NCBI GenBank assembly: GCA_002382735.1
Contig: DFZN01000071.1
Span: 55,542 to 119,541, forward strand
Reading direction: 5' to 3'
Origin: a bacterium UBP11_UBA4055
GTDB taxonomy: Bacteria > UBA4055
Length of the DNA stretch: 64,000 nt
Positions within the stretch are counted from its first letter, which is position 1; the number at the start of each line of letters is the position of its first letter. This document shows, piece after piece, positions 24,304-41,411 of the stretch. The notes under the pieces were generated by a model. The model saw only the letters and a list, made by a program, of their open reading frames with translations, was not told where the DNA came from and made no database searches. The position numbers and the translations under genes are program-made.

Positions 24304-24443
24304 TTTAGGTTCCGTAATTTACTCAAGTGTGTAATATATGTAATCAAAACACTTTTTGCGACGATAAAAAAGATTAATTATTTTTCTTGAATTTACAGAT
24401 ACATGAGTTATATTAACCTTATAAAATCTGGTACGGAGACATT

Positions 24444-26243
24444 ATGGGAATATATTTTGTCAAAGCCTTTCTGCTACTGTCTGTTATGTTACATTCAATT
24501 CCCGCATTCGGTCTCAAAATTGGAGTTTATGATAATCCGCCCAAGATATTTTTGAACGAGAAAGGCGATGTTGACGGTTTCTGGCATGCAGTTACTGTTG
24601 AAATAGCCAAAAAAGAGAACTGGAAGATCGAATGGGTATGCGGTTCATGGGACGAATGTCTGCACAGACTTGAAACAGGCGAGATTGATATAATGCCGGA
24701 TACGGGAGTGACCCCCGACCGGAAATTGAAATATGTTTTCAATGAAGAAACAGTTTACCTGAGCTGGAACAGGGTTTATTCAAGAATTGATGCCGGCATA
24801 ATTACGGTACTGGATCTTGAGGGTAAAAAAGTTGCCGGTCTCAGGAACAGTTTTGATCTGGAAGGACCCGAAGGTTTGAAAAAACTTTTAACAGATTTTT
24901 CCGTGAATGCGCAGATAATAGAAATGGACAGTTATGAAGATATATTCACGGCACTTGGAAAAAACGAGATATCAGCCGGCCTAGTGGATAAAGATTTCGG
25001 TCTATTTAATGAGCAGAAGCACCCGGTCTTTAAGACCCCGATCATTCTACAGCCCGCAAAGATGCAGTTCGCTATGGAAAAAAATTCGCCATTCTCGAAA
25101 GATATCATCCGGATCATTGATATGAGAATGGCTGAGATGAAAGCAGACAAAAATTCTGTTTACTATAAAGCTTTTGATCACTTTTTCGGAGAAGAGGGCA
25201 GGCGTTTTAGAATACCCGGCTGGCTTTGGATAATTCTGATCGGACTTTGCTCACTGATCGCGGTCGTAGTGCTTTTGAACCGATATTTGAGAAACGAGGT
25301 AAAGAAAAAAACGCTGAGCCTGAAAGAGAGTGAGGAAAGTCTGAGGATCACTCTGGAGTCTATCGGTGACGGAGTTATAGCTGCCGACATGAACGGTCTG
25401 ACCACGATAATGAACAAGACTGCCGAAAGTCTTACCGGATGGAAGTTCTCTGAAGCCATCGGGAAGCCGATAAAAGAAATATTCAGAATAGTTAATTCTG
25501 AAACAAGACAGGAAGTAATAAATCCCGTCGAATTGGTGATAAAGAACGGTGTTATCGTGGGACTGGCTAATCATACTGTACTGATCTCAAGGAACGGTAA
25601 AGAATATCAGATATCCGACTCGGCTGCGCCGATAAAAGATGATAAAGGAGATATACACGGCATGATCCTCGTATTCTCCGATGTTACAGAAAAATATTCA
25701 ATCAGATACAGGGTAGAAGAAAATGAGAGATTTCTTGACTCTCTCATTTCCAATCTGAACGGAATGGTGTACCGTTGCGTCAATGACAAGAAATGGTCGC
25801 TGATATATTCAACTGTCGGATCAAAGGAAATAACAGGTTATATGCCTGAAGAGCTTATCAGGGGAACCTTAAGATACGCTGATATGGTATTTCCGGAGGA
25901 TGTGCCTGTTCTCAAGAACGCAATAGACAGAGCGATCGCATCCAGACAGCATTTTAATGTTGAATACAGGCTCACTGACCGTAACGGTAAGCTGAAATGG
26001 GTGCTGGAAAAGGGCAAAGGCATATATGATGAGAACGGTAATGTCAAATTCATTGAGGGTTTCGTTACTGATATTACTCCGAGTAAGACCTCAGAAATGG
26101 AAATAAGGGAAAAATCAGAAGAACTTGAAAGGACAAACCGGCTTATGGTGGACAGGGAATTAAAGATGATAGAGCTCAAAAAAGAGATCAATGCTCTGTT
26201 AAAAGCCTCAGGAAAAGAACCCAGATATATAACAAACGAATAG
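24444..26243 (+). CDS. membrane sensor made of a periplasmic family-3 solute-binding-protein domain, one TM, two PAS domains and a coiled coil, with no kinase or other output domain
   Basis: It has a signal peptide, an SBP_bac_3-like region to about aa 250, a TM (WLWIILIGLCSLIAVVVLL) and PAS boxes (…ITLESIGDGVIAAD…), and ends in a heptad coiled coil. Confidence 0.7.
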   Translation: MGIYFVKAFLLLSVMLHSIPAFGLKIGVYDNPPKIFLNEKGDVDGFWHAVTVEIAKKENWKIEWVCGSWDECLHRLETGEIDIMPDTGVTPDRKLKYVFNEETVYLSWNRVYSRIDAGIITVLDLEGKKVAGLRNSFDLEGPEGLKKLLTDFSVNAQIIEMDSYEDIFTALGKNEISAGLVDKDFGLFNEQKHPVFKTPIILQPAKMQFAMEKNSPFSKDIIRIIDMRMAEMKADKNSVYYKAFDHFFGEEGRRFRIPGWLWIILIGLCSLIAVVVLLNRYLRNEVKKKTLSLKESEESLRITLESIGDGVIAADMNGLTTIMNKTAESLTGWKFSEAIGKPIKEIFRIVNSETRQEVINPVELVIKNGVIVGLANHTVLISRNGKEYQISDSAAPIKDDKGDIHGMILVFSDVTEKYSIRYRVEENERFLDSLISNLNGMVYRCVNDKKWSLIYSTVGSKEITGYMPEELIRGTLRYADMVFPEDVPVLKNAIDRAIASRQHFNVEYRLTDRNGKLKWVLEKGKGIYDENGNVKFIEGFVTDITPSKTSEMEIREKSEELERTNRLMVDRELKMIELKKEINALLKASGKEPRYITNE

Positions 26244-26251
26244 GATGAAAA

Positions 26252-26527
26252 TTGGTACAGGAAAATGAAATAATAACTTTTTTACTTTTTGCGCTCGTAG
26301 TGATCTTTTATTTTATCAACAGGCAGAAGCTTTCGGGATTCCCTGGAATAAAGTATTTTCTGATCTCGATAGTTTTCCTGTTGATAAGCAGTATTCTGAC
26401 GATAATAGAAGGCTTTTTCTTTGAAGAGATCATCAACACAGCAGAACATATAACACGACTCGTCTCCACAGTAATGCTTTTTGTTTGGGCTTATTCTTTA
26501 AGAGCAAAAAAAGGAAGTGCGAAATGA
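26252..26527 (+). CDS. small 3-TM membrane ORF (TTG start) overlapping the next kinase gene by 4 nt; possibly a detached N-terminal membrane module
   Basis: Hydrophobic helices are FLLFALVVIFYF, YFLISIVFLLISSILTII and LVSTVMLFVWAY. There is no in-frame ATG. It ends ATGA, overlapping the kinase start. Confidence 0.35.
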   Translation: MVQENEIITFLLFALVVIFYFINRQKLSGFPGIKYFLISIVFLLISSILTIIEGFFFEEIINTAEHITRLVSTVMLFVWAYSLRAKKGSAK

Positions 26528-28383
26528 TAGGTTATATAGATTTTTTGTGCCTGATTTTTACAGTAATGTCCGGAATTTTTATGGTCAGAATAAAAAAAGT
26601 CAAACTCCCGTTATTTCTAAATGTCACTAAAATATTATTTCTTCTCCTTTTTTTCCATTACCTGAGTAATTCGCTCGAATGGCTCGGGATTTCGGATATA
26701 CTCGATCCTTACGAAGATTTTATTGAGCTTTTTGAACCGTATTTTTTGTTTATGATTGTGTACTTGTTTATAGCTGAAAAATCCGGTGAAAGTTTAAAAG
26801 CGTCAGAAGAAAAATACAGACTTCTTATTGAAAACCAGGATACTCTTGTTGTAAAGATCGATCCTGAAGGGCGCTTTATCTATGTGAGCCCGAGTTATTG
26901 TAAAGCCTTCGGAAAGAAAGAGGAAGAACTTCTGGGACAGAAATTCCTTCCCCTTGTGCATGAAGAAGATATCGGACCTACTTTAATGGAGATGGAGAAG
27001 CTTTATAGTCCTCCATATAGCTGTTATATTGAACAGAGGGCGATGACCGTTAAAGGGTCGAGATGGTTGGGCTGGGCTGACAAGGCTGTTTTTGATAAAG
27101 ACGGTAAAATGATCGAGATAATCGGAGTGGCCCACGATGTTACCGAAAGAAAGAACAATGATAACGAAATAAAGAATCTTAAAACCCAGTTCGAATATGT
27201 TCTCGGTGCTACAAATACGGGTTTCGATCTGATCGATGAGGATTATAATGTGCTCTATATTGATCCGATGTGGGCAAAAGTTCTCGGGGATTATTCAGGA
27301 AAGAAATGTTATGAATACTTTATGGACAGAGAGGAACCATGTTTAACATGCGGCATTCCGTCAGTACTTAAAACCGGCAACACTGAAGTTACTGAAGAAT
27401 ATCTTGTTAAGGAAGACAGGCACATCGTGGTACATACGATACTGCTCAAAGAAAAAGTGAACGGAAAGCGTGTAGTAGCCGAATTCAATATTGATATCAC
27501 TGAAAGAAAGAAAAAGGTGCACGACCTCAGACAGGCACTTGATGATCTGAAAAAGAGCAGGCTGGCCGAATTGAATCTTATTGAAGATCTTAAATTCGAG
27601 ATAAATGAAAAAGAAGAAGCAAGGCTCGAGATCAAGAAGCTTAACGACACGCTTGAAAAGAGAGTAGAGGAAAGAACAAGAGAGCTTGAACTCTCGAACA
27701 GAGAGCTGGAGGCTTTCAGCTATTCGGTTTCTCATGATCTCAGGGCTCCGTTAAGACATATTCTGGGATTTACTGTACTTCTAAACGACGCAGTTCAAAA
27801 TGGTACTATTCAGGATGCTGTTCATGATATTGAAAAGATCAGAGAAAGCGCCGAAAGCATGGGTGGGCTGATCGACGACCTTCTCAATTATTCCAGAACG
27901 GGAAGAACTGAGATCAATGTGGGAACAGTTAAAATGAAAGAAATCGTACTTGAGATAAAAGAAAGGATGATGAACGAGAATCAGTCCAGAGATATCGAAT
28001 GGATCGTCCGTAATATGCCTGACGCTGAATGTGACGAAAATCTAATAAGAACTGTCTGGCTCAATATTATTGATAACGCCGTCAAATATACTTCGAAAAA
28101 AGACAAAGCTGTGATTGAGATAGGTTTTGAAGAAACTGACCGGACATACGGCTATTTTGTAAAGGACAACGGCGCGGGATTCGACATGAAGTATTCCGAT
28201 AAGCTGTTCGGCGTATTCCAAAGGCTACACTCAAAGAATGAATTTCCGGGTACAGGTATAGGACTTGCGAATGTAAGGCGCATAATATCCCGGCACAGAG
28301 GTACCGTAAATGCGGTCTCTGAAGGTGAGGGAAAAGGCGCATGTTTTTATTTCATTCTGCCTGTTAAGGAGAATATCAAATGA
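26524..28383 (+). CDS. membrane PAS/PAS sensor histidine kinase
   Basis: It has 3 N-terminal TM helices and PAS domains. HisKA is FSYSVSHDLRAPLRHI and the HATPase_c N/G boxes are IIDNAVKYT and GTGIGLANVRRI. I chose the start at MIGYIDF; the track starts at 26485. Confidence 0.8.
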   Translation: MIGYIDFLCLIFTVMSGIFMVRIKKVKLPLFLNVTKILFLLLFFHYLSNSLEWLGISDILDPYEDFIELFEPYFLFMIVYLFIAEKSGESLKASEEKYRLLIENQDTLVVKIDPEGRFIYVSPSYCKAFGKKEEELLGQKFLPLVHEEDIGPTLMEMEKLYSPPYSCYIEQRAMTVKGSRWLGWADKAVFDKDGKMIEIIGVAHDVTERKNNDNEIKNLKTQFEYVLGATNTGFDLIDEDYNVLYIDPMWAKVLGDYSGKKCYEYFMDREEPCLTCGIPSVLKTGNTEVTEEYLVKEDRHIVVHTILLKEKVNGKRVVAEFNIDITERKKKVHDLRQALDDLKKSRLAELNLIEDLKFEINEKEEARLEIKKLNDTLEKRVEERTRELELSNRELEAFSYSVSHDLRAPLRHILGFTVLLNDAVQNGTIQDAVHDIEKIRESAESMGGLIDDLLNYSRTGRTEINVGTVKMKEIVLEIKERMMNENQSRDIEWIVRNMPDAECDENLIRTVWLNIIDNAVKYTSKKDKAVIEIGFEETDRTYGYFVKDNGAGFDMKYSDKLFGVFQRLHSKNEFPGTGIGLANVRRIISRHRGTVNAVSEGEGKGACFYFILPVKENIK

Positions 28384-30239
28384 TCAGGGTGTATAAAGAG
28401 ATACTTGACGAATTACCTTCGGGTGTGTGGGTCACCGACAGAGAGGATAAGGTAGTTTACATAAATAAAGCCATGACGGCTATAGCCGGAGCTTCGATAG
28501 AAGAGTTTACAGGATTGAATGTTTTTAAAGATATGGATAATCCGGGGAATAAAGAATTCCTTGAATCCTACAGAAAAGTAAAACGGAATCTCTTTCCCGG
28601 AGAATACGAGGTCAGGCTGAAAGATTCCAAAGGGCAAGGTTTCGTTCACAGGGGATGGCTCACTCCGCTGATCAAGAACTGTTTTTATGGCGGAATGATC
28701 GTTACGGCTGAAGATATCACAGAGAAAGATATCTATCTGAAAGCTGTGAAAGAATCAGAGGATAAGTTCAGAAGAACGATCGAATTTGCGGCCGACGGAA
28801 TACTTCTCGGCTCACCTGAAGGCTATATTACTGAAGCCAATCAAGCTGTCTGCGAACTGTTCGGTATGGATAAAAAGAATATGATGCAGCTTCATAAAAT
28901 GCCGTTCACAAAAGAGAGCCTTGAAAGATACCCTATGAGATTCGACCTTTTAAAACAGGGAAAGACCGTGATCAGCGAGAGAGTAATAAAAAGGAAGGAC
29001 GGTTCGGAGATCATGATCGAAATGAAAACTAAGATGATGGATGACGGTAGCTATCAGTCCATATACAGGGATATTACCGAGAGGAAACAGAATGAGAATG
29101 CCCTGAAAGAAAACGAGGAGAAATTCAGGACGATTTTTGAAGAGTCCAATGATGCGATATATCTAATGGACGGCGACACTTTTATTGACTGTAACGAACA
29201 GGCCGTTAAAATGTTCGAATGCGCCGACAGAAATGAAATGATCAATCACAAACCGATGGAATTCTCACCGTCCGTTCAACCCGACGGGTCAGAAAGTGTT
29301 CCATCGGCACTTGAGCATATAAATGAGGCACTGGCCGGAAGACAGCAGAGGTTCTACTGGAAACACAGGAAGAAGAACGGACAGGATTTTGACGCCGAAG
29401 TTTCCCTCAACGCAGTTTTTCTAAAAGGCAAAAAGTTCCTTCAGGCGATCGTTAAAGATATAACATTCAGAATGGAGGCTGAAAAAGAGATTAAACAGAT
29501 AAACGAATCTCTTGAGCAGAAGATCAAGGAACGGACAGCTGAGCTTGAAGAAGCCTACAAAGAACTTGAATCGTTCAGTTATTCGGTGTCGCACGATCTG
29601 AGGGCACCTTTGAGGCATATTTCCGGTTTCTCGGATATAACAAGGAAAAACCTTTCTTCAGGCAATATTGAGAAAGCCTCAAATTCTCTAAAGAAAGTCG
29701 AGGAAGCTACAGAAAAAATGGAAAAACTGATCGATGGCCTTCTCAAATTGTCAAGGACAGGAAGAGTAGAGCTCAATATGACTGAACTGAACATGAACGG
29801 TATTATTGCGGATGTGATAGATGAGTATAAAGACTGCCCTGAGTATAATGCGGCAGAGTGGCACATAAGAGAGCTGCCTTCCGTCTATGCTGACAGGACA
29901 CTTATGACTTCAGTTTGGGAAAATCTTATAGATAATGCACTTAAATACACTGGTAAGAACGATGATCCCAAGATCGAGATCGGATGTAATAACTCAGCCG
30001 ACCGCTGCGAATTTTATATAAAGGATAACGGCGTAGGATTCGATCCTGAGTTCACAAATAAGTTATTCGGGGTTTTTCAGAGGCTGCATCTTGATAAAGA
30101 ATTCCGCGGTACAGGCATAGGTCTTGCCACAGTGAAAAGAATAATCGACCGTCACGGGGGAACTGTGCGGGCGGAAGGAGAGACAAATAAAGGCGCAACA
30201 TTTTATTTTACACTACCAAAAGTACAGGGGGAAAAATGA
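28380..30239 (+). CDS. cytoplasmic multi-PAS sensor histidine kinase
   Basis: It has three PAS-like segments. HisKA is FSYSVSHDLRAPLRHI. HATPase_c motifs are LIDNALKYT, DNGVGFD and GTGIGLATVKRI. Confidence 0.85.
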   Translation: MIRVYKEILDELPSGVWVTDREDKVVYINKAMTAIAGASIEEFTGLNVFKDMDNPGNKEFLESYRKVKRNLFPGEYEVRLKDSKGQGFVHRGWLTPLIKNCFYGGMIVTAEDITEKDIYLKAVKESEDKFRRTIEFAADGILLGSPEGYITEANQAVCELFGMDKKNMMQLHKMPFTKESLERYPMRFDLLKQGKTVISERVIKRKDGSEIMIEMKTKMMDDGSYQSIYRDITERKQNENALKENEEKFRTIFEESNDAIYLMDGDTFIDCNEQAVKMFECADRNEMINHKPMEFSPSVQPDGSESVPSALEHINEALAGRQQRFYWKHRKKNGQDFDAEVSLNAVFLKGKKFLQAIVKDITFRMEAEKEIKQINESLEQKIKERTAELEEAYKELESFSYSVSHDLRAPLRHISGFSDITRKNLSSGNIEKASNSLKKVEEATEKMEKLIDGLLKLSRTGRVELNMTELNMNGIIADVIDEYKDCPEYNAAEWHIRELPSVYADRTLMTSVWENLIDNALKYTGKNDDPKIEIGCNNSADRCEFYIKDNGVGFDPEFTNKLFGVFQRLHLDKEFRGTGIGLATVKRIIDRHGGTVRAEGETNKGATFYFTLPKVQGEK

Positions 30240-30679
30240 GATCAAAATTCATTCTGCTGGTAGAGGATGACCAGAACGATGTAGAGCTTACTTTAAGAGC
30301 TCTCAAGCACGGGTACGACGGGAATATCACAGTAGTAAATGACGGAGCCGAGGGACTTGATTTTCTTTTCCGAAAAGGAAAATACGCAGACAGGGGGACT
30401 GAAGATCCGGGTTTTATTATTCTGGACAAGAAGATGCCCAAAATGGACGGTATTGAATTACTCATTGCCGTAAAAAAAGACGAAGTGTTAAAGAATATTC
30501 CCGTAATAATGTTCAGCTCGTCTAATTACGAAAAGGACATTTCGGACTCCTACAAAGCCGGCGTGAACGCTTACATTGTAAAACCTATAAATATTGATGA
30601 ATATTATAAAGCAGTCAGAGAGATCGGGCACTTTTGGGGTGAGTTGAACGAAGCACCTTCAATGCAAAACCGTCCTTGA
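30236..30679 (+). CDS. single-domain response regulator (CheY-like receiver only)
   Basis: ILLVEDDQND…FIILDKKMPKMDG…PVIMFSSS…K carries the receiver DD / D / T-S / K positions. Confidence 0.85.
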   Translation: MRSKFILLVEDDQNDVELTLRALKHGYDGNITVVNDGAEGLDFLFRKGKYADRGTEDPGFIILDKKMPKMDGIELLIAVKKDEVLKNIPVIMFSSSNYEKDISDSYKAGVNAYIVKPINIDEYYKAVREIGHFWGELNEAPSMQNRP

Positions 30680-30755
30680 GATAAACGGTTAGACAAAAAA
30701 ATGGTAATTGCCGGTTGGCATTGAACAAGACAGTCCAAATATAACAGGCTTAATA

Positions 30756-32243
30756 ATGGAAAAGATAATAATACTTATACTTGAAGATAACGAAAACGAT
30801 ATCGACCTTATCAGGTATGAACTTGAAAAGATCAGTTCTGAAACAGTATTTCTGATAACGAGAAACAAGAATGAATACATCAATTCGTTGACAAACAATG
30901 AACCGGATATAATACTTTCCGATTATAATCTTCCTGACATTGACGGTGAAGAAGTGCTGTCCTTGTTAAGAGAAAGAAATTCCGACACTCCTTTCATTCT
31001 TGTCTCAGGCACTATCGGTGAAGAAAAAGCTGTCGAGCTTATGCGTAACGGTGCTAATGATTTTATTGTTAAAAATAATCTTAAGAAACTTATCCCGACA
31101 ATTGAAAGGGAAATAAACGCATATAAGAGCAGAAAGAAGGCGAAAGAAGATCATGCCGAACTTATTAAGCTTAAAGCGGCTGTGAATCAAAGTCCTACAA
31201 TAATAGTCATGACCGATATTAAAGGGAATGCTGAATATGTAAATCCGCGTTTTACCGAGGTAACTGGTTATACTCTCGATGAAGTAAAAAACAAAAATCC
31301 GAGAATTTTAACATCAGGTGAAATGACCGATGAAGAGTATTCAGAAATGTGGAATACTATAACCGAAGGCAATATTTGGAAAAGTGAATTTCTGAACCGA
31401 AAAAAGAACGGGAAGCTTTATTGGGAAGGAGCTACCGTAGGCCCGGTATTTGACGAAAACAAAAGGATCACAAACTTTCTGAAACTGTCTCAGGATATAA
31501 CAGATAAAAAACAACTCATAAAAGAATTGCTGAAAGAAAAAGAAGCACTTGTTGCATCGAACAATGAACTCGAACAGTTCGCCTATATCACTTCACACGA
31601 CCTGCAGGAACCCCTGAGGATGGTTTCCAGTTTTACCGACCTGTTAATGAAAAAATATTCAGATAAACTAAATGAAGAAGCAAGAAGTTATATGAATTTC
31701 GCGATAAACGGCGCAAAGAGAATGCAGATGCAAATTCAGGGGCTGCTGACTTATTCAAGAGTGTCAACAAGATCTAATCCGTTTGAGAAAATATCATTAA
31801 ATGAAGTTCTCAAAGAAGCTTTAATGAACATTTCGGCATCGGTAAAAGAATCCGGCGCACAGATCGAAAGTGCTGATCTTCCTGTTGTTCTGGGGGACAA
31901 GTATCTGCTTCTATCGGTTTTCCAGAACCTTATTGGCAATGCCGTTAAATTCAGAAAGGACGGAATTGTACCGAAGATCAATATCCTTGCGACAGATACG
32001 AGAATTTCCGATAAAATCGAAGTGTCAATATCTGATAATGGAATCGGTATCCCGGAGAAAGATATTGATAAAATATTCTTCATTTTTCAGAGACTTCATT
32101 CGCAGGATAAATATCAGGGAACAGGCATTGGTTTGGCAGTTGTTAAAAAAATAATCGAAAAACACGGAGGAGAGATACATGTTGAATCTGTATTGAATGA
32201 AGGAACAAAATTCATTTTTTCACTAATAAAAGGCTCGCTATGA
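30756..32243 (+). CDS. hybrid receiver-PAS-histidine kinase
   Basis: REC is ILILEDNEND…IILSDYNLPDIDG…K. PAS is at about aa 150-260. HisKA is ITSHDLQEPLRMV. HATPase is IGNAVKF…GTGIGLAVVKKI. The start was moved to MEKIIIL (ATG at 30756). Confidence 0.85.
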   Translation: MEKIIILILEDNENDIDLIRYELEKISSETVFLITRNKNEYINSLTNNEPDIILSDYNLPDIDGEEVLSLLRERNSDTPFILVSGTIGEEKAVELMRNGANDFIVKNNLKKLIPTIEREINAYKSRKKAKEDHAELIKLKAAVNQSPTIIVMTDIKGNAEYVNPRFTEVTGYTLDEVKNKNPRILTSGEMTDEEYSEMWNTITEGNIWKSEFLNRKKNGKLYWEGATVGPVFDENKRITNFLKLSQDITDKKQLIKELLKEKEALVASNNELEQFAYITSHDLQEPLRMVSSFTDLLMKKYSDKLNEEARSYMNFAINGAKRMQMQIQGLLTYSRVSTRSNPFEKISLNEVLKEALMNISASVKESGAQIESADLPVVLGDKYLLLSVFQNLIGNAVKFRKDGIVPKINILATDTRISDKIEVSISDNGIGIPEKDIDKIFFIFQRLHSQDKYQGTGIGLAVVKKIIEKHGGEIHVESVLNEGTKFIFSLIKGSL

Positions 32244-32644
32244 AAGATCGATCGGGAAACAATATAATACTTGTCGAAGACAATGAGGGAGATGTAGTTC
32301 TTGCGGGAGAAGCGTTAAAATTTATCGGATCGAACTCAAATATAATACATATTAATGACGGAGAAAGCCTTTTCGAACACCTTAGCGACCGTAAAAATGA
32401 TACACCCGATGTAATAATTCTTGATCTTAATCTTCCGGGAATGAACGGAACTGAAATACTAAAAATTCTAAAAAAAAATCCCGAAACTGAGAACATACCG
32501 GTTATTATATTATCAACATCCAATAACCAGAATGACATTGATAAATGCAGTGAATTGAAAGCAGATAAATATATCACAAAACCGATCGATCTGAACGAAT
32601 TCTTTGAAGTATTCAGGGATATCGACAGCTGGATTAAACATTGA
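32240..32644 (+). CDS. single-domain response regulator
   Basis: ILVEDNEGD…VIILDLNLPGMNG…PVIILSTS…K. Confidence 0.85.
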   Translation: MKDRSGNNIILVEDNEGDVVLAGEALKFIGSNSNIIHINDGESLFEHLSDRKNDTPDVIILDLNLPGMNGTEILKILKKNPETENIPVIILSTSNNQNDIDKCSELKADKYITKPIDLNEFFEVFRDIDSWIKH

Positions 32645-32669
32645 ATTGCTGATAAATTAAGGATAAATA

Positions 32670-34955
32670 ATGGAAAGAGAAAAACTGAAAATAGCTGTAG
32701 TTGAGGATAACGAAGGTGATGCAGTATTGATAAAAGAAATGCTTACTTTCGGGGATGTCGAGATCACACATTTCAAAGATATAGAAAGCGCGCTGGAAGA
32801 TTTTGAGTTCAGCCGTTACGATGTCGCGGTGGTAGATCTCGGCCTGCCCGGATGTGTCGGCTCAGAAGCACCGATGATGATCATTAATGAAAATCCCACT
32901 TTACCGGTCATAGCTTTAACCGGAAGCGATGATATAAGAGTGATACAGAAAGTTCTGAGCGTAGGCGCACAAGATTATCTTATAAAGGGAAAATTCGACA
33001 GAGACACGCTGATCAGATCAATACGATATTCGATCGAAAGAAAAAAAGTTCACGATAATCTTTATGCTCAAAAACAATTTTCAGAAAATATTATTAATAC
33101 CGCAGGCGCGATAATAATGGTGCTGGATGGATCAGGCAGGATCACAAGAATAAACGAATATTTTAGAGATGTCACAGGATTTAGAACCGAAGACGCAAAA
33201 AACAGAGTTTTTGCAAGTTCTTTTGTTTCTCAAGGCTATATTGATAAAACTGAGGATGCACTTAGAAGGTCATTTACCGAAGATTTTGACAGAAGATTTG
33301 TGAACGCTATTCTAAAAAAAGGAGGCGGGTCGGTCATTGTCGAATGGCATTTTTCTCAAATGAAGAACAATGATAACGCTATACTGGGTCTGTTATGCGT
33401 AGGTATTGATATTACTGAGAGGGTAGAAGCGGAAGATCATCTCAAAAGAAGTGAAGAGCTTTTAAAAAGAACTCAATCTATCGCCAATGTCGGGAGCTGG
33501 ATATTTGAAAGCAAAACATCGGAACTTGTATGGTCGGATGAGGTTTACAAGATATTCGGGATCGATAAGAGGAGAATAAAACCCAGTTATGAAATTCTGG
33601 CGAATTCAATACCGGGAGATGAGCGAGCTGCTTTTGAAAGCGAATTCAAGTCGGCAGTAAATGAGGGGAAGCCTTTTGAAATAATTCACAGTATCAAAAG
33701 GAAAGACGGAACCCTCAGAACTGTCCATCAGAAAGCTGAGCATGAAAAGGACAGCAAAGGCAATGTTGTAAGGATTCTTGGGATGATTCATGATATTACG
33801 GATCAGAAAGAACTGGAAGAGCAGCTCAGACAATCCCAGAAAATGGAAGCTATAGGGCTTCTAGCAGGCGGTATCGCTCACGATTTCAATAATCTTCTTA
33901 TGGTGATATTATGCAACTGTGATCTCATGCTTGCCGACATGAAGAAAAACGATCCCCATACCGACGACATAATAGAGATAAAGAAAAGCGGGCAGAGAGC
34001 CGCAGAACTCACTAAACAGCTTCTTGCTTTCAGCAGGAAACAGGTCTTAAAACCCCAAATCCTTGACCTGAACATGATAATAGGCGATCTTGAGAAGATG
34101 ATCAGGAGACTGGTAGGAGAAAAAATAGATATTGTAACAAAAATGAGACCGAATATCGATATGGTTAAAGCCGACAGGGGACAGGTAGATCAGATAATCA
34201 TGAATCTGGTAGTGAACGCCAGAGACGCTATGCCTAAGGGTGGTAAAATAATTATTGAAACTATGAATGTAGCCCTTGATGATAACTATATCAAGAAATA
34301 CTCTGACATTGAACCCGGGAACTATGTCATGATGGCAGTTACAGACACCGGGTCGGGAATGAATAAAGAAACTGTTGATAAGATATTTGAACCGTTTTTT
34401 ACAACAAAAGGTATAGGGAAGGGTACAGGACTGGGGCTGTCAACTGTATATGGTATCGTAAGACAGAGCGGAGGTTATATTTACTGTTACAGCGAACCGG
34501 GAAAAGGAACTGCTTTCAAGATATATCTGCCTGTTGCGGATGAAGATATTATTTCTGATAAAGATAAGAAGGAAATGAATGACCTCAGGTCACACGGTGG
34601 AACAATTGTTGTTATTGATGATGAAAAAGAGATAAGAGAAGTTATAACCCGTATGCTTGAACAGGAAGGTTACGAGGTGCTGACAGCAGATAAATACGAA
34701 GATGTTTTGAATTATTTCGAGACTCGGAAAATTGATCTTTTGATCACTGATGTAATAATGCCAGAAATAAACGGTGACGAGATCGGCGAGATGATCCTCG
34801 AGAAATACCCCGGGTCAAAGATAATATTCATGTCGGGATATACAGAGAGCACAATTATAGATTTCAGTCTGCTCGATAAAAACAAAATCTATCTCCAGAA
34901 ACCCTTTTCGAGACAATCTCTTGTTCAGAGCGTTAACGAAATACTCATCAGTTAA
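32670..34955 (+). CDS. hybrid sensor kinase with domain order REC, PAS, PAS, HisKA, HATPase_c, C-terminal REC
   Basis: The N-terminal REC is VVEDNEGD…VAVVDLGLPG. HisKA is IAHDFNNLL. HATPase is LVVNARDAM…GTGLGLSTVYGI. The C-terminal REC is IVVIDDEKE…LLITDVIMPEING. Confidence 0.85.
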   Translation: MEREKLKIAVVEDNEGDAVLIKEMLTFGDVEITHFKDIESALEDFEFSRYDVAVVDLGLPGCVGSEAPMMIINENPTLPVIALTGSDDIRVIQKVLSVGAQDYLIKGKFDRDTLIRSIRYSIERKKVHDNLYAQKQFSENIINTAGAIIMVLDGSGRITRINEYFRDVTGFRTEDAKNRVFASSFVSQGYIDKTEDALRRSFTEDFDRRFVNAILKKGGGSVIVEWHFSQMKNNDNAILGLLCVGIDITERVEAEDHLKRSEELLKRTQSIANVGSWIFESKTSELVWSDEVYKIFGIDKRRIKPSYEILANSIPGDERAAFESEFKSAVNEGKPFEIIHSIKRKDGTLRTVHQKAEHEKDSKGNVVRILGMIHDITDQKELEEQLRQSQKMEAIGLLAGGIAHDFNNLLMVILCNCDLMLADMKKNDPHTDDIIEIKKSGQRAAELTKQLLAFSRKQVLKPQILDLNMIIGDLEKMIRRLVGEKIDIVTKMRPNIDMVKADRGQVDQIIMNLVVNARDAMPKGGKIIIETMNVALDDNYIKKYSDIEPGNYVMMAVTDTGSGMNKETVDKIFEPFFTTKGIGKGTGLGLSTVYGIVRQSGGYIYCYSEPGKGTAFKIYLPVADEDIISDKDKKEMNDLRSHGGTIVVIDDEKEIREVITRMLEQEGYEVLTADKYEDVLNYFETRKIDLLITDVIMPEINGDEIGEMILEKYPGSKIIFMSGYTESTIIDFSLLDKNKIYLQKPFSRQSLVQSVNEILIS

Positions 34956-36847
34956 TACTGCCAAGTTATCTCGTCAGTATATAGCATAAATTCCTGAAGA
35001 TATGTGACGATCAGTTTTCCGTTGTAAAAAGTATATTCGGCCTTTCCGAAAGGACCCATTTTCATGCCGTTAATATTCAAATAAACACCGTCACTGTTTT
35101 GATACCTGAATATAAATATCCTGCTGTCCGGTGAAAAGGACGGAAAGTCCGCATATTCATACGGTCCGAAGGTCTCGTCGCAAATCTGAACATAGTAATG
35201 AGTATCAGAAAAGTGGATGAAGCCGTATTTCTTTTTGTCGTTGCTGAAGATCGGAATATAGATCTGAAGATTCTTATTTCTTGATAAATACTTTCTTCCG
35301 TTTATCTGTAAATTATCTATATCGGACTGTTTATCTCTGTACTTAAAGGCGAAAAGCGACTCGTCAGGTAAAAATCTCCATTCCGAGATACTTTCGTAAG
35401 GTCCGAATAATGTATCATTGAGATTTATGAACCACGAATTGTTCCTTTTAAAAATAATAGCTTCAATTCCTATATAATTCGTCTGATAATCAATTATCTC
35501 GGCATCATCCTCAATAATCTCTCCGTTGAAGGAAATATAATTCTGGAGTTTGGAGAACAAATGTCCGGTCTTCTGTTTTTTTGAGAAACTATAAATATAA
35601 CTGCTCCCATTAAGGATCAAATTCGAAGCAGAATCGTACATTCCGTGAAGATTGTTCGAAATGTTCACAAAATATTTAGCGTTCTTCATAAAAATAAAAC
35701 CAAAGGACGAAGCTGAATCCGTGATCTCGACATCTGAAACAGTTATATATGGGCCAAAAATTTCGCCGTTTATATTGATATAGTAATTGTCATATTGTTT
35801 CTGATATACAAAACAATAGTTTTCTCCGCCGGAGCTGATCTTCATACCGGAAATGCTTTTATACGGACCATATTCATATTCACCGGTCACAACATAATAC
35901 TGACCGTCCTTCATATATGAAAAAATATAACTGTCACCTGTTCTACTAAGACGGTGATCAGTTACATTTGAAAAGAGACCTATGTCTTTAACAATCACAT
36001 GATACGAAGTTTCTTTTTTTGACATTTGGAATGATGCTTCCGTTCTTAATACAGAGCTCACGAGAATAAAATTCTTGTTCACCTTTTCGACTACATATTT
36101 ATCGAATCCGCTTAGGACACTGTCGTTGATCCGGCAAAAATCAGTTTTATCCTTTGTAAAAAGGAATGTATAGTGACCGTACTCTTTATAGTAATGAAGA
36201 TCTGAAGCCGATTCGAAAGGTCCGAAAACACTGTCGTTTATTTTTACAAAATATTCGCCCTCATTTTTTTTGAAAATGTATGCCATAAAACTGCTTGGGT
36301 AGTCCATAATAAAATCTGACAGATCGTCATAAGGCTCGGAAATCACTTCGTTAACCCTTACATATTTCTTTGAACCTGACCTGTAACATAATGCGAACGA
36401 GGTACCGTCGGGCGAAAATTCTACATTATAGATCTTTCTGAAACTTCCGAATTTATTGTTGTTTACCAACAGAAATGCGTCACCTAGAGTTTCGTACCAC
36501 AAATAATAAGTAATGTTGTCATTAAGCCCGAAATCTTTAATTTTATAAAATGGTCCCAATATCCTTCCGTTTATGATGACCGAATCCTGATTTTCATCTT
36601 TTATGAGGCCAAGCTTTTTTGAGAATGTTGAGGATTTGAAAGCCACTATTTTACCGTTCTTTCTGAATATGATCTTTTCAATAGAATCGAATCCGCCGTA
36701 TATTTTATCTTTATTCTGCGCAAAATATTTACCCTGTGTTCTAAAAACGAACAGGAAATTGTTCCCCTCGTTGGATATATACAGAGAAGCGTTCTCGAAT
36801 TCTTTTCCCGATGAGTATTCAGATATTCTGAAAAGGTTTATGCCCAT
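34952..36847 (-). CDS. tandem-repeat protein with about 11 repeats of ~50 aa, each containing an [IV]N[GD]xxFGP[YF] core; no signal peptide; function unknown
   Basis: Repeats are read directly, for example INGEIFGPY, INDSVFGPF, LNDTLFGPYE, ICDETFGPYE, INGMKMGPFG and VTGEYEYGPYKSI. Confidence 0.6.
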   Translation of the reverse strand: MGINLFRISEYSSGKEFENASLYISNEGNNFLFVFRTQGKYFAQNKDKIYGGFDSIEKIIFRKNGKIVAFKSSTFSKKLGLIKDENQDSVIINGRILGPFYKIKDFGLNDNITYYLWYETLGDAFLLVNNNKFGSFRKIYNVEFSPDGTSFALCYRSGSKKYVRVNEVISEPYDDLSDFIMDYPSSFMAYIFKKNEGEYFVKINDSVFGPFESASDLHYYKEYGHYTFLFTKDKTDFCRINDSVLSGFDKYVVEKVNKNFILVSSVLRTEASFQMSKKETSYHVIVKDIGLFSNVTDHRLSRTGDSYIFSYMKDGQYYVVTGEYEYGPYKSISGMKISSGGENYCFVYQKQYDNYYININGEIFGPYITVSDVEITDSASSFGFIFMKNAKYFVNISNNLHGMYDSASNLILNGSSYIYSFSKKQKTGHLFSKLQNYISFNGEIIEDDAEIIDYQTNYIGIEAIIFKRNNSWFINLNDTLFGPYESISEWRFLPDESLFAFKYRDKQSDIDNLQINGRKYLSRNKNLQIYIPIFSNDKKKYGFIHFSDTHYYVQICDETFGPYEYADFPSFSPDSRIFIFRYQNSDGVYLNINGMKMGPFGKAEYTFYNGKLIVTYLQEFMLYTDEITWQY

Positions 36848-36853
36848 ATGATA

Positions 36854-38641
36854 TTAATCCCTGATTAGTTCGTAACTGAGAGTGAACCTGATCACGGTAC
36901 CTTTACTCTTACCTTCAGAGTCTGCCCAAATTCTTCCGTTGTGGAGTTCAATGACTTTTCTGCAGAAAGCAAGTCCGGCACCCGATCTGAGGCTGTTATC
37001 TTTATCCGATTTAAAACCGGGAAAAAATATCCGCTCCAGATCTTCATTAGCTATGCCCTTGCCGTCATCTGCAACGAAAAAAGAGTTATCTTCATAGCCA
37101 ATGGAAATTTGTCTGCCGCCGTAAATGACTGCGTTAGATACCAGTTGATTAAAGAGTAGTTTAATATTTTCTTTATCCGCAAATATGTCCGGGATCTTAT
37201 CTCTGTTCACTAATTCGATCACCGCATTATATTTTTCGATCAAAATTTTATTGTCGGAAATGACCTGATCGATTATTTTTGAGGTATTAACCATCTCGAA
37301 GGGATTCTTCACGGCGTTCAATTTTGATATATCGTAAAAATTCCTGAAAAGTTCGTTCATTCTCTTGATATTTGAGATTATTTTTTCAAGGTAGATACTG
37401 CTTTCATTCCCTGCTTCAGACAATGATGAAGTCTTCAACAGCAGTTTGGAAAATCCTTCCACTGCTATGATAGGAGACTGGAGGTCATGAGTAGTCATGT
37501 ATATCAGTTTCTTCATGTCCTCGGTTGTTCTCTTTACTTCATTCTCGATCTTCTTTTTTTCGGTTATATCCTGCAGTATTCCTGATATCTTTCGAAGGTT
37601 GCCATTACCGTGAATGTTTTTTGCCTTAATTCTGAAATATCTGGTCTTGTCATTAAATTCTGAACTCCTGTCCATGTATGTAATCTCATTGTCGATTTCA
37701 TCCTTTTGAGAATGCATACTCTTAAGCTCAATATAGAACTGCTCGAATTTTAGATTTTCACGAATATCTTCGAGTTTAGATTTTTTTTCGTAAGGAATGT
37801 TGAGTATCCTGAAGAATTCTTTTGAAGCCGTAATCTCATCGGTTTCGGGTAAATAAGTCCAGCTTCCCATGCTGGCGATCTCCTGAGCCTGAGAGAGAAG
37901 TTCTTTGCTTTCCTTTAACGCAGCGTCCTTCTTGATAAGGTCCGTAATGTCAACCATAGAAGTGAGTTCCTCGGTACCTGCCATCAGGATTACTGTCACG
38001 ATCACATGCCTAAGATCGCCGTTTTTCCTTCTGAATTTCATGGTATATTCTCTCGGTGCTTTCTCAGGGTCGTATTTTCTCAGCCGGTCAAATTCGAAAA
38101 CTCTTTTGATATCGTCTTCATAAACTACTTTTCCCCAGTGCATCTTTCCGATTATCTCCTCCCGGTCATATCCTGAAAGCTCTACAAATTTCCTGTTACA
38201 GTCGCTGATGAGTTCATTATCTCCTACTATCAGTATCGCAGTTCCGTTGTTTTCAAAAAGAGATCTGTATTTAGCTTCTTTTTCCATTATCTCCCTGGAA
38301 TTTTTGGTTACATCCTCCAGATAATTCAGTTTTTTAAAATCCGAGATCCATTTACGCATAAGAAAATGGATCGTGACAGCCATTGCCAGGACTGAGAATA
38401 TTATTATTCCGGACATGAGGTAATAATGACCGATAGTATCTTTGTAGGCGTTAAAAAGAGCTTCATATTCCTCTACATATTTCTCGGCCAGATTATATTT
38501 TGTAACGATAGCGTCATTTAGGAAAATATCTTTATTACGCCATGTAAAATAACCCACAACGGCTATTATCTCAGCGGTAAATATACCGAGATACAGGAAG
38601 TAGTTTTTGAACAGAGAATTAAATTTGTCTTTTTTCGGCAT
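36854..38641 (-). CDS. membrane-anchored PAS/PAS sensor histidine kinase
   Basis: It has two N-terminal TM helices and PAS domains. HisKA is MTTHDLQSPI. HATPase_c motifs are SNAVIYG, DDGKGIA and GAGLAFCRKV. Confidence 0.85.
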   Translation of the reverse strand: MPKKDKFNSLFKNYFLYLGIFTAEIIAVVGYFTWRNKDIFLNDAIVTKYNLAEKYVEEYEALFNAYKDTIGHYYLMSGIIIFSVLAMAVTIHFLMRKWISDFKKLNYLEDVTKNSREIMEKEAKYRSLFENNGTAILIVGDNELISDCNRKFVELSGYDREEIIGKMHWGKVVYEDDIKRVFEFDRLRKYDPEKAPREYTMKFRRKNGDLRHVIVTVILMAGTEELTSMVDITDLIKKDAALKESKELLSQAQEIASMGSWTYLPETDEITASKEFFRILNIPYEKKSKLEDIRENLKFEQFYIELKSMHSQKDEIDNEITYMDRSSEFNDKTRYFRIKAKNIHGNGNLRKISGILQDITEKKKIENEVKRTTEDMKKLIYMTTHDLQSPIIAVEGFSKLLLKTSSLSEAGNESSIYLEKIISNIKRMNELFRNFYDISKLNAVKNPFEMVNTSKIIDQVISDNKILIEKYNAVIELVNRDKIPDIFADKENIKLLFNQLVSNAVIYGGRQISIGYEDNSFFVADDGKGIANEDLERIFFPGFKSDKDNSLRSGAGLAFCRKVIELHNGRIWADSEGKSKGTVIRFTLSYELIRD

Positions 38642-38645
38642 TTAG

Positions 38646-39827
38646 TTAAACTCCCTGCGCGTTACCGTCAACCGGAATAGAAACCGAGAATGTCGATCCG
38701 CCGCCGAATTTACTTTCTACGGATATATCGCCTTTGTGCGCTTCGATTATCTTTTTAGCGATCGGAAGGCTGATACCCTGCCTGTTCTCCTCTTCACCTG
38801 TATTGAACTTAAAAATATCCTTAAGATCTTCTTCAATTATACCGATCCCGTGGTCTTTGATCAGGAATTTTATGATTCCGTTTTCGTACTTCATGCCGAT
38901 TTCAATACTTGTTGAGTTTTCAGAATATTTAATTGCGTTCTCGATCATTCTTGACAGCGCGATCAAGATCTTGTTTGTGTCCATCATTACTTCAACAGGA
39001 AGTATGTTGTCATGATAAGCTTCTATCCTGATCTGTTTTTTTTCAGCGGAAGCTGTATTACGAGAAATCAATTCATTAAAGAACTCAAGCGTTCTTACTT
39101 TTGAATATTTCAGCTTCAGATTTCCGGAAGTGATGTCTGCCACATTCATTATCTTTGCGTATATCTTGGCAAGCTCTTCTGCTTTTCCGAAAATTTTTTC
39201 GGTTACCGCAAGCTTTTCGCTGTCAGTTCCCGGATCAAACATTTCTGAGAGTTCAGTTGTCAGATCGGCAATTTTCTGGGTAGAATTCCTGAAATCGTTC
39301 ATCGCGATCTCTATGAACTGGTTTTTGATATCATTGAGTTCCTCAAGTTCAGCTTTCTGATCTTTTATAACTTCATACAGCCTGTTCAGTTCGTTGTTCG
39401 CTGAAGTTAATTCTTCGGTTGAGCTCTTGAGTTCGTCATGCATCATTTTAAAATTTAGGACATTTTCTATCCTTAGTACGAATTCTTCGGGGATTACAGG
39501 CTTGTTGACGAACTCTATTATTCCGCATTCGAGCGCTTCTTTCCTCATATCGTCGTCCACATATCCTGTCAGCATAATAGTCGGGATGTCTTTCGTAATA
39601 CCCTTACTCTTCATCTCCTTTAACATTTCACTGCCGCTCATACCGGGCATCTTACCGTCAGTTACGATCAGGTCGAATTCCATGATTGATGCTTTTTGGA
39701 TACCTTCTTTCCCACTCGATGCGAAAACAAGTTCCCAGTCGCTTCTTCTCGCCTGGAAGATCCTCCTTATCCCGTTCAGCACAGGCACTTCGTCGTCAAC
39801 GAAAAGTATCCTGAAATTTTTTTCCAT
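38646..39827 (-). CDS. hybrid receiver + coiled-coil + histidine-kinase-like transmitter
   Basis: REC is ILFVDDEVPV…LIVTDGKMPGMSG…TIMLTG…K. The C-terminus has HATPase_c motifs (IENAIKYS, DHGIGI, GISLPIAKKI). Confidence 0.8.
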   Translation of the reverse strand: MEKNFRILFVDDEVPVLNGIRRIFQARRSDWELVFASSGKEGIQKASIMEFDLIVTDGKMPGMSGSEMLKEMKSKGITKDIPTIMLTGYVDDDMRKEALECGIIEFVNKPVIPEEFVLRIENVLNFKMMHDELKSSTEELTSANNELNRLYEVIKDQKAELEELNDIKNQFIEIAMNDFRNSTQKIADLTTELSEMFDPGTDSEKLAVTEKIFGKAEELAKIYAKIMNVADITSGNLKLKYSKVRTLEFFNELISRNTASAEKKQIRIEAYHDNILPVEVMMDTNKILIALSRMIENAIKYSENSTSIEIGMKYENGIIKFLIKDHGIGIIEEDLKDIFKFNTGEEENRQGISLPIAKKIIEAHKGDISVESKFGGGSTFSVSIPVDGNAQGV

Positions 39828-39845
39828 AAATTTCTCCGCTATTAA

Positions 39846-41411
39846 TTATTCATTATTTTCAATCGGCAGTTTGATCGTAAAAACTGTTCCCTTGCCATGT
39901 TCTGAATCGACTTTTATACCGCCATTATGCTTATTTACGATTATGTCGTAACTCAAAGCCAGCCCCTGACCCGTGCCTTTCCCGATCTGTTTGGTCGTAA
40001 AAAAAGGCTGGAATATTTTTTCTTTAAGTTCGGCAGGTATCCCGGCCCCGTTATCCTCTATTGTTATGTAAATAAATGCTTCATCGAAAGATGTCGATAT
40101 TTTTATCAGGCCTTTTTCTTCGCCTTTTCTTTCCGATATAGCGTCGCACGAATTCGTTATCATATTAAGAATAACCTGGTTTATGTCTCCGATATGGCAG
40201 GTGATCTCGGGAAGATTTTCGGCGGGGCAGGTCTCAACATCAGCAATATACTTCCAGACATTTTTAGTTATGGTCACAGTCGAAGTTATTGCGTCATTTA
40301 TGTCAGCTTTCTGCATTGTTTTAAGCCCAGGATGCGAGAATGTTTTCATGGCGGTCACGATCTTTCTCACTATCCGGATGCCGTTCATGCTTTCCTCTAG
40401 TGCTTCAGGTATCTCGTTCATCAGATATTCCAGGTCAGTGCCGACAGCTATCTTATTTTCTGAGCCGCTTTCAGCTGATTTTTTGATATTGGAATAGAAA
40501 TCAGATATTTTTTTGAACGAATCTTTGATGAACAGGGTGTTGTCGCTAATATACTGAAGAGGTGTATTTATCTCGTGCGCTATACCTGCGGCCAGAGTTC
40601 CGATCCCTTCCATTTTTTGAGCGTGTCTCAATTGATTTTCAATTCTTATCATATCTGAAATATCCCTTTTAAGCGCGACGAAATTAATTATGTTCCCGCT
40701 TTCGTCAAATACTGGGGACACGGATGCATCCTCTTCATAAACATCCCCGTTCTTCTTTTTATTGATAAAATGACCCTTCCATGGTTTTCCTGCAAGAATC
40801 GTTTTCCAGAGATCATCGTAAAAAGCCCTGTCATGCTGACCGCTCTTTAAAACTGATACCGGCATTCCCAAAACCTCTCCGGCCGAATATCCCGTTGTTC
40901 TTTCGAAAGCAGGATTAACAAATTCGATTATACCTTTGATATCCGTTATTACAATTGTTTCTGAGGAATGATAAATGGCAGTACTGAGCTTGTTCTGTCG
41001 TTCTGCTATGGCATTTCTGTCTTTTCTCAGGTTGCTTAATTCAAGGAACCTATCGGTTTTTTCCGGAAGAGATTCGAACATATCTGCGGATTTATTTACA
41101 TAATCGAGAACACCGGATTTTATAAGAGTTACTACGGTTTCCTGATCAACAAAGCTCTCAAGGACTATGACAGGTACATTTTTGTATATGTAGGGATCCT
41201 TTAACAGATCTAAAGGACTTCCGTCGTCAAGGTAGAGATTGCTAATGATAATATCGGAACTCTCGGCATATTTCCGTGCAATTTCGATGTCAGGTACGAT
41301 CGTCAGCCTGTAACGGTTACCGTATCTGAGAAATACGCTGTTTATGAGTATTCCGTGATCCTCATTTTTTTCTATAAGCAGTACTTTTACCGGCATGTCA
41401 GCTCTGTCCAA
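39846..41411 (-). CDS. PAS sensor histidine kinase with an N-terminal pseudo-receiver (phospho-acceptor Asp replaced by Asn)
   Basis: The receiver-like region is VLLIEKNED…[16 protein letters not shown]…VPVIVLES…K, with Asn where the Asp normally sits. HisKA is [12 protein letters not shown]. HATPase is ITNSCDAI…[12 protein letters not shown]. Confidence 0.8.

Follow-up and report, generated by a model that had tools for sequence, protein, structure and literature searches.

Our results lead us to read the signalling hub described here, on balance, as a conserved multikinase network of receiver-controlled kinases carried on two convergent operons, and not as a demonstrated His-Asp-His-Asp phosphorelay. 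The hub lies in a 64,000-nucleotide stretch of DNA from the bacterium UBP11_UBA4055 (assembly GCA_002382735.1, contig DFZN01000071.1, positions 55,542 to 119,541 of the forward strand), hereafter the window, of which it occupies bases 24444-42663. It consists of 13 genes, numbered g1 to g13, 10 of which encode PAS, histidine-kinase or receiver proteins according to the listing of open reading frames (ORFs) and to Pfam. Domains were taken from Pfam scans, plus NCBIfam models, and transmembrane (TM) segments from a hydropathy scan.

The genes of the hub are tightly packed. They are separated by 4-nucleotide overlaps or by gaps of 4 to 25 nucleotides, the exceptions being g5/g6 (76 nucleotides) and g13/g12 (91 nucleotides), and the stop codons of g8 and g9 share the sequence TTAA at 34952-34955, tail to tail. 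The same overlap is found in two related loci (L004, 4106-4109; L009, 14877-14880). Since this conserved overlap leaves no space for a terminator, the convergent transcripts must run into each other. The small gaps and overlaps, together with the tail-to-tail junction, therefore define a block of two convergent, translationally coupled operons. A first-pass annotation, made by a model from the letters of the window, had instead described a single contiguous unit of nine signalling proteins ending at 41411. Its domain list, which actually holds ten such proteins, agrees almost item by item with our Pfam annotation, and the flavin mononucleotide (FMN)/4Fe-4S gene that it placed inside the hub is real, although this gene (g13) lies at 41488-42663, just past that end. 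Two-component genes make up 10 of the 13 consecutive hub genes, whereas the remaining annotated genes of the window include 2. This density, and the recurrence of the arrangement in related contigs, show that the clustering is not due to chance. Recent tandem duplication was rejected as the source of the kinases, since no two paralogues of the hub exceed 35% identity. Note that a scan of the hub for sigma-70 promoters and terminators gave counts not above those of shuffled sequences, and says little on the operon boundaries.

The hub recurs in relatives assigned to Candidatus (Ca.) Delongbacteria, at 52-84% identity. The window itself is bacterial in content, with an AsmA-family gene, a sigma-54 activator, pstSCAB-phoU and PhoR/PhoB-like genes, and a protein identical to g8, the largest hybrid kinase, is encoded on contigs of the JGI metagenomes 3300002446 and 3300000032 and of run SRR636597, the first and the last of which come from a hydrocarbon-degrading enrichment. 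The sole relative in the species-representative genome collection was a Ca. Delongbacteria metagenome-assembled genome (MAG; 81% identity), and named homologues of three hub proteins are likewise annotated as Ca. Delongbacteria. In loci L009 and L010 (76%), L093 (71%) and L005 (68%), the block g13-g12-g11-g10-g9 faces g8, a small receiver, a PAS-PAS kinase, a g6 orthologue and another small receiver; in these loci the plus operon also has a fused SBP_bac_3-PAS-kinase of 978-1099 amino acids. Locus L012 (80-84%) is also counted among those in which g13-g12-g11-g10-g9 faces g8, and in L004 (81%) g10-g9 faces g8. The orders g13-g12-g11-g10-g9 and g5-g6-...-g7-g8 persist at identities as low as 68%, and g12-g11 at 52%. 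In the distant loci L007 and L094 (52-53%), a hybrid kinase is followed by g12 and g11; in L007, g9 (37% identity) comes after g11 and is followed by more receiver and kinase genes, and in L094 the gene after g12-g11 is interrupted by the contig end. Orthology was confirmed by BLAST for L009 (g6, 64% identity; g7, 57%; g10, 53%) and, in L005, for g9 only. In L093 (12990-17143), each of the g9 and g8 orthologues is called as two genes (309 + 318 and 332 + 429 amino acids, respectively), through either assembly frameshifts or real decay.

The plus operon begins with three genes for membrane proteins. g1 (24444-26243) has a signal anchor, a periplasmic solute-binding protein (SBP) domain of the SBP_bac_3 family, one TM segment and two cytoplasmic PAS domains, with neither HisKA nor HATPase (Pfam and TM prediction). 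g2 (26252-26527) encodes 91 amino acids with two or three TM segments and is translationally coupled to g3 (26524-28383), a kinase with three TM segments, a PAS domain, a Cys-containing PAS-like region, HisKA and HATPase. The soluble g4 (28380-30239) has three PAS domains, then a kinase with a bacteriophytochrome-type core. Downstream are g5 (30236-30679), a single-domain receiver (REC) of the Rcp1/bacteriophytochrome response-regulator type with an intact Asp pocket; g6 (30756-32243, with an alternative TTG start at 30708), which combines REC, a NifL/LOV-like PAS and a kinase; g7 (32240-32644), an intact single-domain REC of the same class as g5; and g8 (32670-34955), a REC-PAS-PAS-kinase-REC hybrid with a CckA-like core. 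Both g6 and g8 are thus REC-PAS(n)-DHp-CA proteins, with the N-terminal receiver ahead of the kinase core.

The minus operon starts with the NapH/PceC/NosR-like membrane protein g13 (41488-42663), which carries FMN_bind and Fer4_5. It continues with g12 (39846-41396; the longest ORF starts at a TTG at 41411), composed of a pseudo-REC, a NifL/MmoS-type PAS and a kinase; g11 (38646-39827), with an intact REC, a long coiled-coil signalling helix, a DHp-like region and a HATPase/CA domain; and g10 (36854-38641), a kinase with two TM segments, PAS, HisKA and HATPase. The last gene, g9 (34952-36847), encodes a cytoplasmic GPY-repeat protein, predicted to form a tandem beta-propeller.

The seven DHp-CA cores of the hub were aligned with EnvZ, and the seven receivers with CheY. 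The H-box His is present in g3, g4, g6, g8, g10 and g12, and so are the N, G1 and G2 motifs; g12 was missed by the Pfam HisKA model, yet its H-box (AHEINTPL) is clear. The acidic pocket (D12/13), the phospho-acceptor D57, T/S87 and K109 (CheY numbering) are intact in g5, g7, the N-terminal receivers of g6, g8 and g11, and the C-terminal receiver of g8. The g12 receiver reads E, K, N, E and K at D12, D13, D57, T87 and K109, and these changes (D13K, D57N, T87E) bear out the earlier guess that it is a pseudo-receiver. Loss of the conserved His or Asp, which would mark the hybrids as degenerate paralogues, is therefore confined to the g11 core and the g12 receiver, and does not apply to six of the seven kinase cores and six of the seven receivers.

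The kinases and receivers also fall into recognisable classes. The H-boxes of g3 (SHDLRAPL), g4, g6 and g10 follow the pattern [ST]HDL[RQ]xP, and those of g8 (AHDFNNLL) and g12 the pattern AH[DE][FI]N. The solved structures nearest to the g4 core are 8f71 and the bacteriophytochromes 8uph and 9ys3. For g5, the best PDB matches are 5ic5, 5brj, 4zyl, RcpA, RcpB and Rcp1, all of them single-domain regulators that partner phytochromes, and g7 and the N-terminal receivers of g6 and g8 are g5 paralogues (33-40% identity) with a common VEDNxxD signature. The g8 core is nearest to CckA (5idj, E 3e-62) and LvrB in the PDB. We do not assign g8 to the CckA family, as its score with the NCBIfam CckA equivalog model (461 bits) is well under the cut-off of 1000, a TM anchor is lacking, and ChpT and CtrA were not found in the window. 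Matched at the level of classes, these resemblances suggest two matching kinase/receiver specificity classes within the hub.

The order of the plus operon, that is kinase(s), small receiver, receiver-kinase, small receiver and receiver-kinase-receiver, together with the class match, fits tiers of receiver-controlled kinases. In the mechanism that we propose, input would enter through the membrane unit g1-g2-g3 and then the soluble triple-PAS kinase g4. Kinases with bacteriophytochrome-type cores would phosphorylate receivers of the Rcp1 type, either free (g5, g7) or N-terminal on the next kinases (g6, then g8). The signal would in this way descend through the tiers, with g5 and g7 forming side branches, draining phosphate or acting as allosteric partners. 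In the minus operon, g13 and g12, with its NifL/MmoS-type PAS, would give a redox input, g12 possibly via g13. g12 would most likely phosphorylate g11, its conserved neighbour, on the intact receiver. g11 in turn would be a receiver-controlled pseudokinase, that could be a phosphatase, a reader in the manner of DivL or the partner of g10 in a RetS-like heterodimer. The g9 propeller could be a partner, a scaffold or a target.

There are precedents for receiver-controlled kinases and pseudokinases. The prototype of a receiver-controlled histidine kinase is LvrB of pathogenic Leptospira, in a pathway that runs from LvrA to LvrB to LvrC (PMC13269768, PMC5863495); experiments have shown such control for LvrA acting on LvrB (PMC13269768) and for CheA3/CheS3 of R. 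centenum (PMC3868531). DivK acts allosterically on DivL and CckA in Caulobacter (PMC4211667, PMC9430884), and PsmA (PMC12963549) and the RetS/GacS heterodimer (PMC8498467) are further precedents for receiver-controlled kinases or pseudokinases.

Within this network, g11 is an altered kinase-like protein. In the EnvZ alignment its H-box is AMNDFRNS, where Asn occupies the His position, and its G2 box is RQGISL and not the GxGLG of a regular ATP lid. It also has no Pfam HisKA match and does not qualify as a HisKA kinase; because the phospho-acceptor His is absent, g11 cannot autophosphorylate on His. The REC, the coiled coil and the HATPase domain of the REC-coiled-coil-kinase hybrid originally described are present, but strictly speaking it is no kinase. 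The g11 orthologues (48-95% identity) come solely from Delongbacteria sources and none has a Pfam HisKA match; nearly all of the distant homologues (at most about 30% identity) have one. At the His position, Asn is found in the window copy and in 10 of the 11 aligned orthologues, Asp in the remaining one, and His in four distant homologues. In the same alignment the receiver residues, the N-box Asn and the DxGxG of the G1 box are invariant, and the altered G2 box, QG[IV]SLP, is common to the orthologues. The invariance of the receiver, N box and G1 box despite the loss of the His therefore points to purifying selection on a non-kinase function, and on this sequence evidence we consider g11 to be a conserved, selected His-less protein and not a pseudogene.

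The AlphaFold2 model of g11 (predicted local distance difference test score, pLDDT, 82) supports an architecture of the LvrB type, that is, an N-terminal REC (residues 1-112), a signalling helix (113-196) and a DHp-CA module, with DHp alpha-2 at 203-233 and CA at 242-385. In agreement with this, the best full-length fold match of the model in Foldseek was LvrB (8vc9, about 400 aligned columns), followed by the cores of HK853, ZraS, DivL (4q20), GacS and RetS. Beside the former His, g11 keeps a D/E-x-x-N motif; such an acidic-x-x-Asn motif supports phosphatase activity in HisKA kinases (PMC12963549). Note that a metagenome scan with generic peptide patterns from the g11 alignment gave, among the matches listed, only kinases that are 22-39% identical and no orthologue, and it was not used for synteny.

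Upstream of g11, g12 and g13 have features of redox proteins. The g12 PAS domain matches 9qq6, MmoS (3ewk) and NifL (2gj3), which places it in the NifL/MmoS/LOV flavin-PAS clade, and the LOV Cys is absent; the NCBIfam NifL score of g12 is 175 bits, against a cut-off of 242. This PAS domain is probably flavin-binding. The D57N and T87E changes of the g12 receiver are common to L005, L009 and L010, and the receiver of the L007 orthologue is intact; its degeneration therefore arose within the clade of the window. As for g13, an N-terminal anchor is followed by an extracytoplasmic FMN_bind domain (PF04205) and by Fer4_5 (PF12801), with seven hydrophobic segments in all (the anchor and about six TM segments). 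It contains the motif SGAT within AVSGATYT and two CX3CP motifs (CYYICP and CVYLCP), and thus has the features of the NapH-like (PceC/NosR) class. We take [ST]GA[ST] to be the flavinylation motif of g13, as in ApbE substrates. The adjacency of g13 and g12 is kept in L005, L009, L010 and L093.

At the other end of the minus operon, g9 has no Pfam family, no TM segment and no signal peptide. Its AlphaFold2 model (pLDDT 88.6) is all-beta, and the Foldseek matches are tandem beta-propeller proteins. Assignment to the TmcD or PD40 families was not accepted, since TmcD scored 28 bits against a cut-off of 440 and PD40 was weak; the structure indicates a tandem beta-propeller only. Full-length relatives of g9 form two 50%-identity clusters, both restricted to Delongbacteria and always at this position of the locus. 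No Pfam model covers the GPY/GPF repeat, which has about 37-40 amino acids per blade and occurs in 2,661 proteins (E<=1e-3). Some of the GPY/GPF-repeat proteins (P0262-P0405) have SLH or peptidoglycan-binding N-termini, and the full-length cytoplasmic form of 620-630 amino acids occurs only in Delongbacteria.

The membrane unit of the plus operon is unusual in that its solute-binding protein lacks a transmitter. Nine g1 orthologues are exactly 599 amino acids long (80-86% identity) and one is 596 (59%), all of them without HisKA or HATPase. We considered that g1 could be a truncated fused SBP-kinase, since relatives have the fused form of 978-1099 amino acids, and rejected this because the orthologues of 596-599 amino acids persist down to 59% identity. 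The last residues of g1 (about 35 amino acids, 26130-26243) form the motif RxNxLM[IV][DG]RE[LIV][KR]M[IV][ED]LK[KR]E[IV]N...KY...E. Among the best 120 g1 homologues, 17 carry this motif, always at the extreme C-terminus; these 17 have SBP_bac_3 or dCache inputs and no HisKA or HATPase match, and none of the kinase-containing homologues among the 120 has the motif. This C-terminal stretch could be a helix for docking or output.

g2 has no Pfam or NCBIfam match. It has the same length, 91 amino acids, and the same position in L012 (73% identity) and L011 (40%), and the g1-g2-g3 trio is kept in both. The idea that g2 is a frameshift fragment of g3 was rejected, as the 91-amino-acid orthologues persist down to 40% identity. 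We propose that g1, g2 and g3 could form a split sensor, in which a solute-binding protein without a transmitter would act on a separate membrane kinase. Binding-protein/kinase pairs such as LuxP/LuxQ and TorT/TorS, and the small membrane modulators MgrB, SafA and MzrA, are precedents for such an arrangement. The second PAS-like region of g3 (27350-27420, residues ~276-293) contains a C-x10-C-x2-C arrangement (KKCYEYFMDREEPCLTCG), a possible metal- or cluster-binding site.

What the hub does not contain is an evident output. As the first-pass annotation had stated, none of its proteins has a DNA-binding output domain (Pfam, NCBIfam), and we found no enzymatic output domain in any of them either. 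The solute link through the SBP sensor and the redox link through the FMN/Fe-S protein and the NifL-type PAS, which had been put forward as possible outputs, are plausible as inputs and not as outputs. The only receiver with an output domain among the scanned ORFs of the window is of the PhoB type (54646-55335), and it sits beside a PhoR-like kinase and the pst genes. We infer that the final output is either non-transcriptional or encoded outside the 64-kb window.

This bears directly on the proposal that the locus is a multi-step phosphorelay. In that reading, the kinases would load Spo0F/RcaF-like receivers and the C-terminal REC of g8, from which a carrier of the Hpt, Spo0B or ChpT type, encoded elsewhere, would pass the phosphate to a terminal regulator. 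The first acceptors are indeed present: g5 and g7 are intact single-domain receivers, and g8 has a CckA-like kinase-REC core. Moreover, our view of the genome is limited to 64 kb, and in the distant loci L007 (1-1028) and L094 (3905-5266) a gene for an NtrC-type REC-sigma54 activator lies 1.5-5.5 kb from g12-g11 and is a candidate transcriptional output there; none is found near the hub of the window. However, no second His carrier (Hpt, PF01627, or a Spo0B/ChpT-like protein) was found in the hub or in the other scanned ORFs of the window with Pfam and NCBIfam, nor in the precomputed Pfam lists of the ~10-kb flanks of L005, L007, L009, L010, L093 and L094, and the one DNA-binding regulator of the window, being PhoB-like, has its own PhoR-like kinase and pst genes next to it. 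The N-terminal receivers on g6, g8 and g11 point instead to kinase-to-kinase control. Thus, a conserved signalling hub with many kinases and two single-domain receivers stands, its operation as a multi-step phosphorelay is possible but doubtful, and the gene order is explained by a cascade of receiver-controlled kinases no worse than by the sporulation-, Rcs- or Gac-type relay that had been suggested.

The hub could also be a collection of co-located two-component paralogues that function independently, with partners elsewhere and no integrated network. The plus operon differs in composition among relatives, with kinases gained, lost or fused, the genes are in two separate operons, and six kinases and one pseudokinase are served by just two free receivers. 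We nevertheless find this quite unlikely, since neighbouring genes show translational coupling of stop and start codons all along, gene order is kept to 68% identity (and g12-g11 to 52%), kinase and receiver classes match inside the cluster, and a receiver that is fused to a kinase requires another kinase upstream of it. Still less can g1, g11 and the g12 receiver be regarded as pseudogenes in decay or as artefacts of the assembly. A family-defining residue or domain is missing from each (the transmitter, the His and the Asp, respectively), but the same features are found in independently assembled contigs and MAGs with all frames open: the g1 orthologues keep their 596-599 amino acids, Asn or Asp replaces the His in the window copy of g11 and in 11 of 11 orthologues, and D57N/T87E recurs in three loci. 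Conservation essentially refutes this highly improbable explanation.

Several points weigh against a network of receiver-controlled kinases as well. The wiring that we propose is drawn from gene order, class resemblance and conserved adjacency, and the predictions of flavinylation for g13 and of flavin binding for g12 come solely from homology and motifs. In its upstream part the plus operon is variable: close relatives replace g1-g4 by the fused SBP-PAS-kinase or add kinases of the NMT1 or 5TM-LYT type, so that the tiers do not make up a fixed circuit. The receiver at the end of g8 is of a kind that passes phosphate to an Hpt in most characterised hybrids, and with 64 kb of the genome in view, an Hpt and a terminal regulator may be encoded elsewhere. 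Finally, each operon might work by itself, since conserved tail-to-tail adjacency is all that links them. A network of receiver-controlled kinases remains nonetheless the reading that we favour. A more detailed version of it, which we regard as unlikely, would make the minus operon a redox-sensing device of a new kind: g13 would be a transmembrane electron wire that reports the extracytoplasmic or quinone-pool redox state to g12, and through it to g11 as a switchable phosphatase or pseudokinase, with g9 as the non-transcriptional output. In this version g1-g2-g3 would be the split sensor, with the C-terminal helix of g1 for docking, g2 as membrane adaptor and g3 as kinase.

The hub is built of known domain types, with several conserved atypical members, and it resembles several characterised systems in part. 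As in the Lvr system, g11 has the REC-helix-DHp-CA architecture, with g6 and g8 as REC-(PAS)-kinase variants, and there is no DNA-binding domain in the core pathway; for g3, g4, g8, g11 and g12, the best matches under the threshold include the NCBIfam models of LvrA and LvrB, at scores far below the cut-offs. In contrast to LvrB, g11 has no equivalent of H161 and its G2 box is altered, so a phosphate relay of the LvrB style does not apply; moreover, the hub lacks an LvrC-like REC-anti-sigma protein and has many more components. Like the hub, the Caulobacter DivJ/PleC-DivK-DivL-CckA module combines several kinases and single-domain receivers with a kinase-like protein that has no His and with a PAS-PAS-kinase-REC hybrid of the CckA kind. 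However, DivL has Tyr where g11 has Asn, and a TM/PAS input instead of a receiver; the N-terminal receiver of g8 replaces the TM helices of CckA, g8 scores below the CckA cut-off and ChpT and CtrA were not found; and Caulobacter belongs to another phylum.

The pairs formed by phytochrome kinases and Rcp1 or bacteriophytochrome response regulators (1i3c, 1k68, 5ic5, 5brj) contain the regulators nearest to g5 and g7 and the kinases nearest to the g4 core, and as in these pairs the genes are adjacent. The hub kinases differ in having no GAF or PHY domains, with PAS, SBP and TM inputs in their place; several kinases share regulators, and receivers of the same class are fused to downstream kinases. 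GacS/RetS and CheA3/CheS3 (PMC8498467, PMC3868531) are similar in that kinases converge, REC-kinase hybrids are under another kinase, and an impaired kinase modulates another kinase, but their outputs are known (GacA/Rsm; CheY3 and cyst genes) and none was found in the hub, and there is no sequence orthology. Lastly, g13 shares FMN_bind with SGAT, a polytopic membrane part and two CX3CP motifs with the NapH-like proteins PceC/RdhC and NosR (PMC8238504, PMC5928378). Those proteins sit with respiratory oxidoreductases, whereas g13 heads an operon otherwise made of signalling proteins.

The window has other features besides. In the 140-bp gap 5' of g1, the consensus scan gave a promoter-like site on the plus strand (TTGAAT-16-TATATT, 24387..24414), which is a weak candidate since the scan was not enriched over shuffles. 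On the minus strand, a terminator-like hairpin at 42785-42835 has a perfect 16-bp inverted repeat, a 21-nucleotide loop and A/T-run flanks (fold -22.4 kcal/mol, z -6.4); it sits 5' of the g13 promoter region, between small unannotated ORFs (42851-43606) and g13, and resembles a bidirectional terminator. The gene at 4655-5800 (minus strand), 19 kb upstream of the hub, encodes a PspF-like sigma-54 activator with AAA+ and HTH_8 domains and without a receiver or N-terminal regulatory domain; it is followed by LptE-like and adenosine-kinase-family genes. We considered that this activator could drive the hub and dropped the idea, as the sigma-54 promoter pattern gave 14 matches in the scan against 19 expected, none of them upstream of either operon. 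Two large ORFs (763 and 388 amino acids) at 156-3646 (plus strand) have no Pfam family at E<=0.001, and toxin- or defence-like genes are found at 11367-11789 (a Zeta_toxin-domain ORF of 140 amino acids), 13439-13864 (HEPN) and 52176-52595 (PIN), with a full Zeta_toxin gene near the L093 hub. Rfam and tRNA scans of the window found none.

Ca. Delongbacteria has no cultured member; the papers searched that mention the phylum do so in passing, at most twice each, and its signalling appears unstudied. The locus described here is a compact, conserved example of many sensors without a classical DNA-binding regulator. It also offers a set of natural variants of parts whose mechanisms are under current study: a His-less scaffold of the LvrB type under selection, a pseudo-receiver of which a sister lineage keeps an intact, ancestor-like form, PAS sensors that lack a transmitter and have a conserved helix at the C-terminus, and an electron-transfer protein of the NapH-like class that was recruited into signalling as part of an operon. 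If the wiring that we propose is wrong, the locus would be a dense neighbourhood of ordinary two-component genes. If it is true, the concept of the multikinase network would extend to another phylum, with testable cases of a pseudokinase and of a redox wire.

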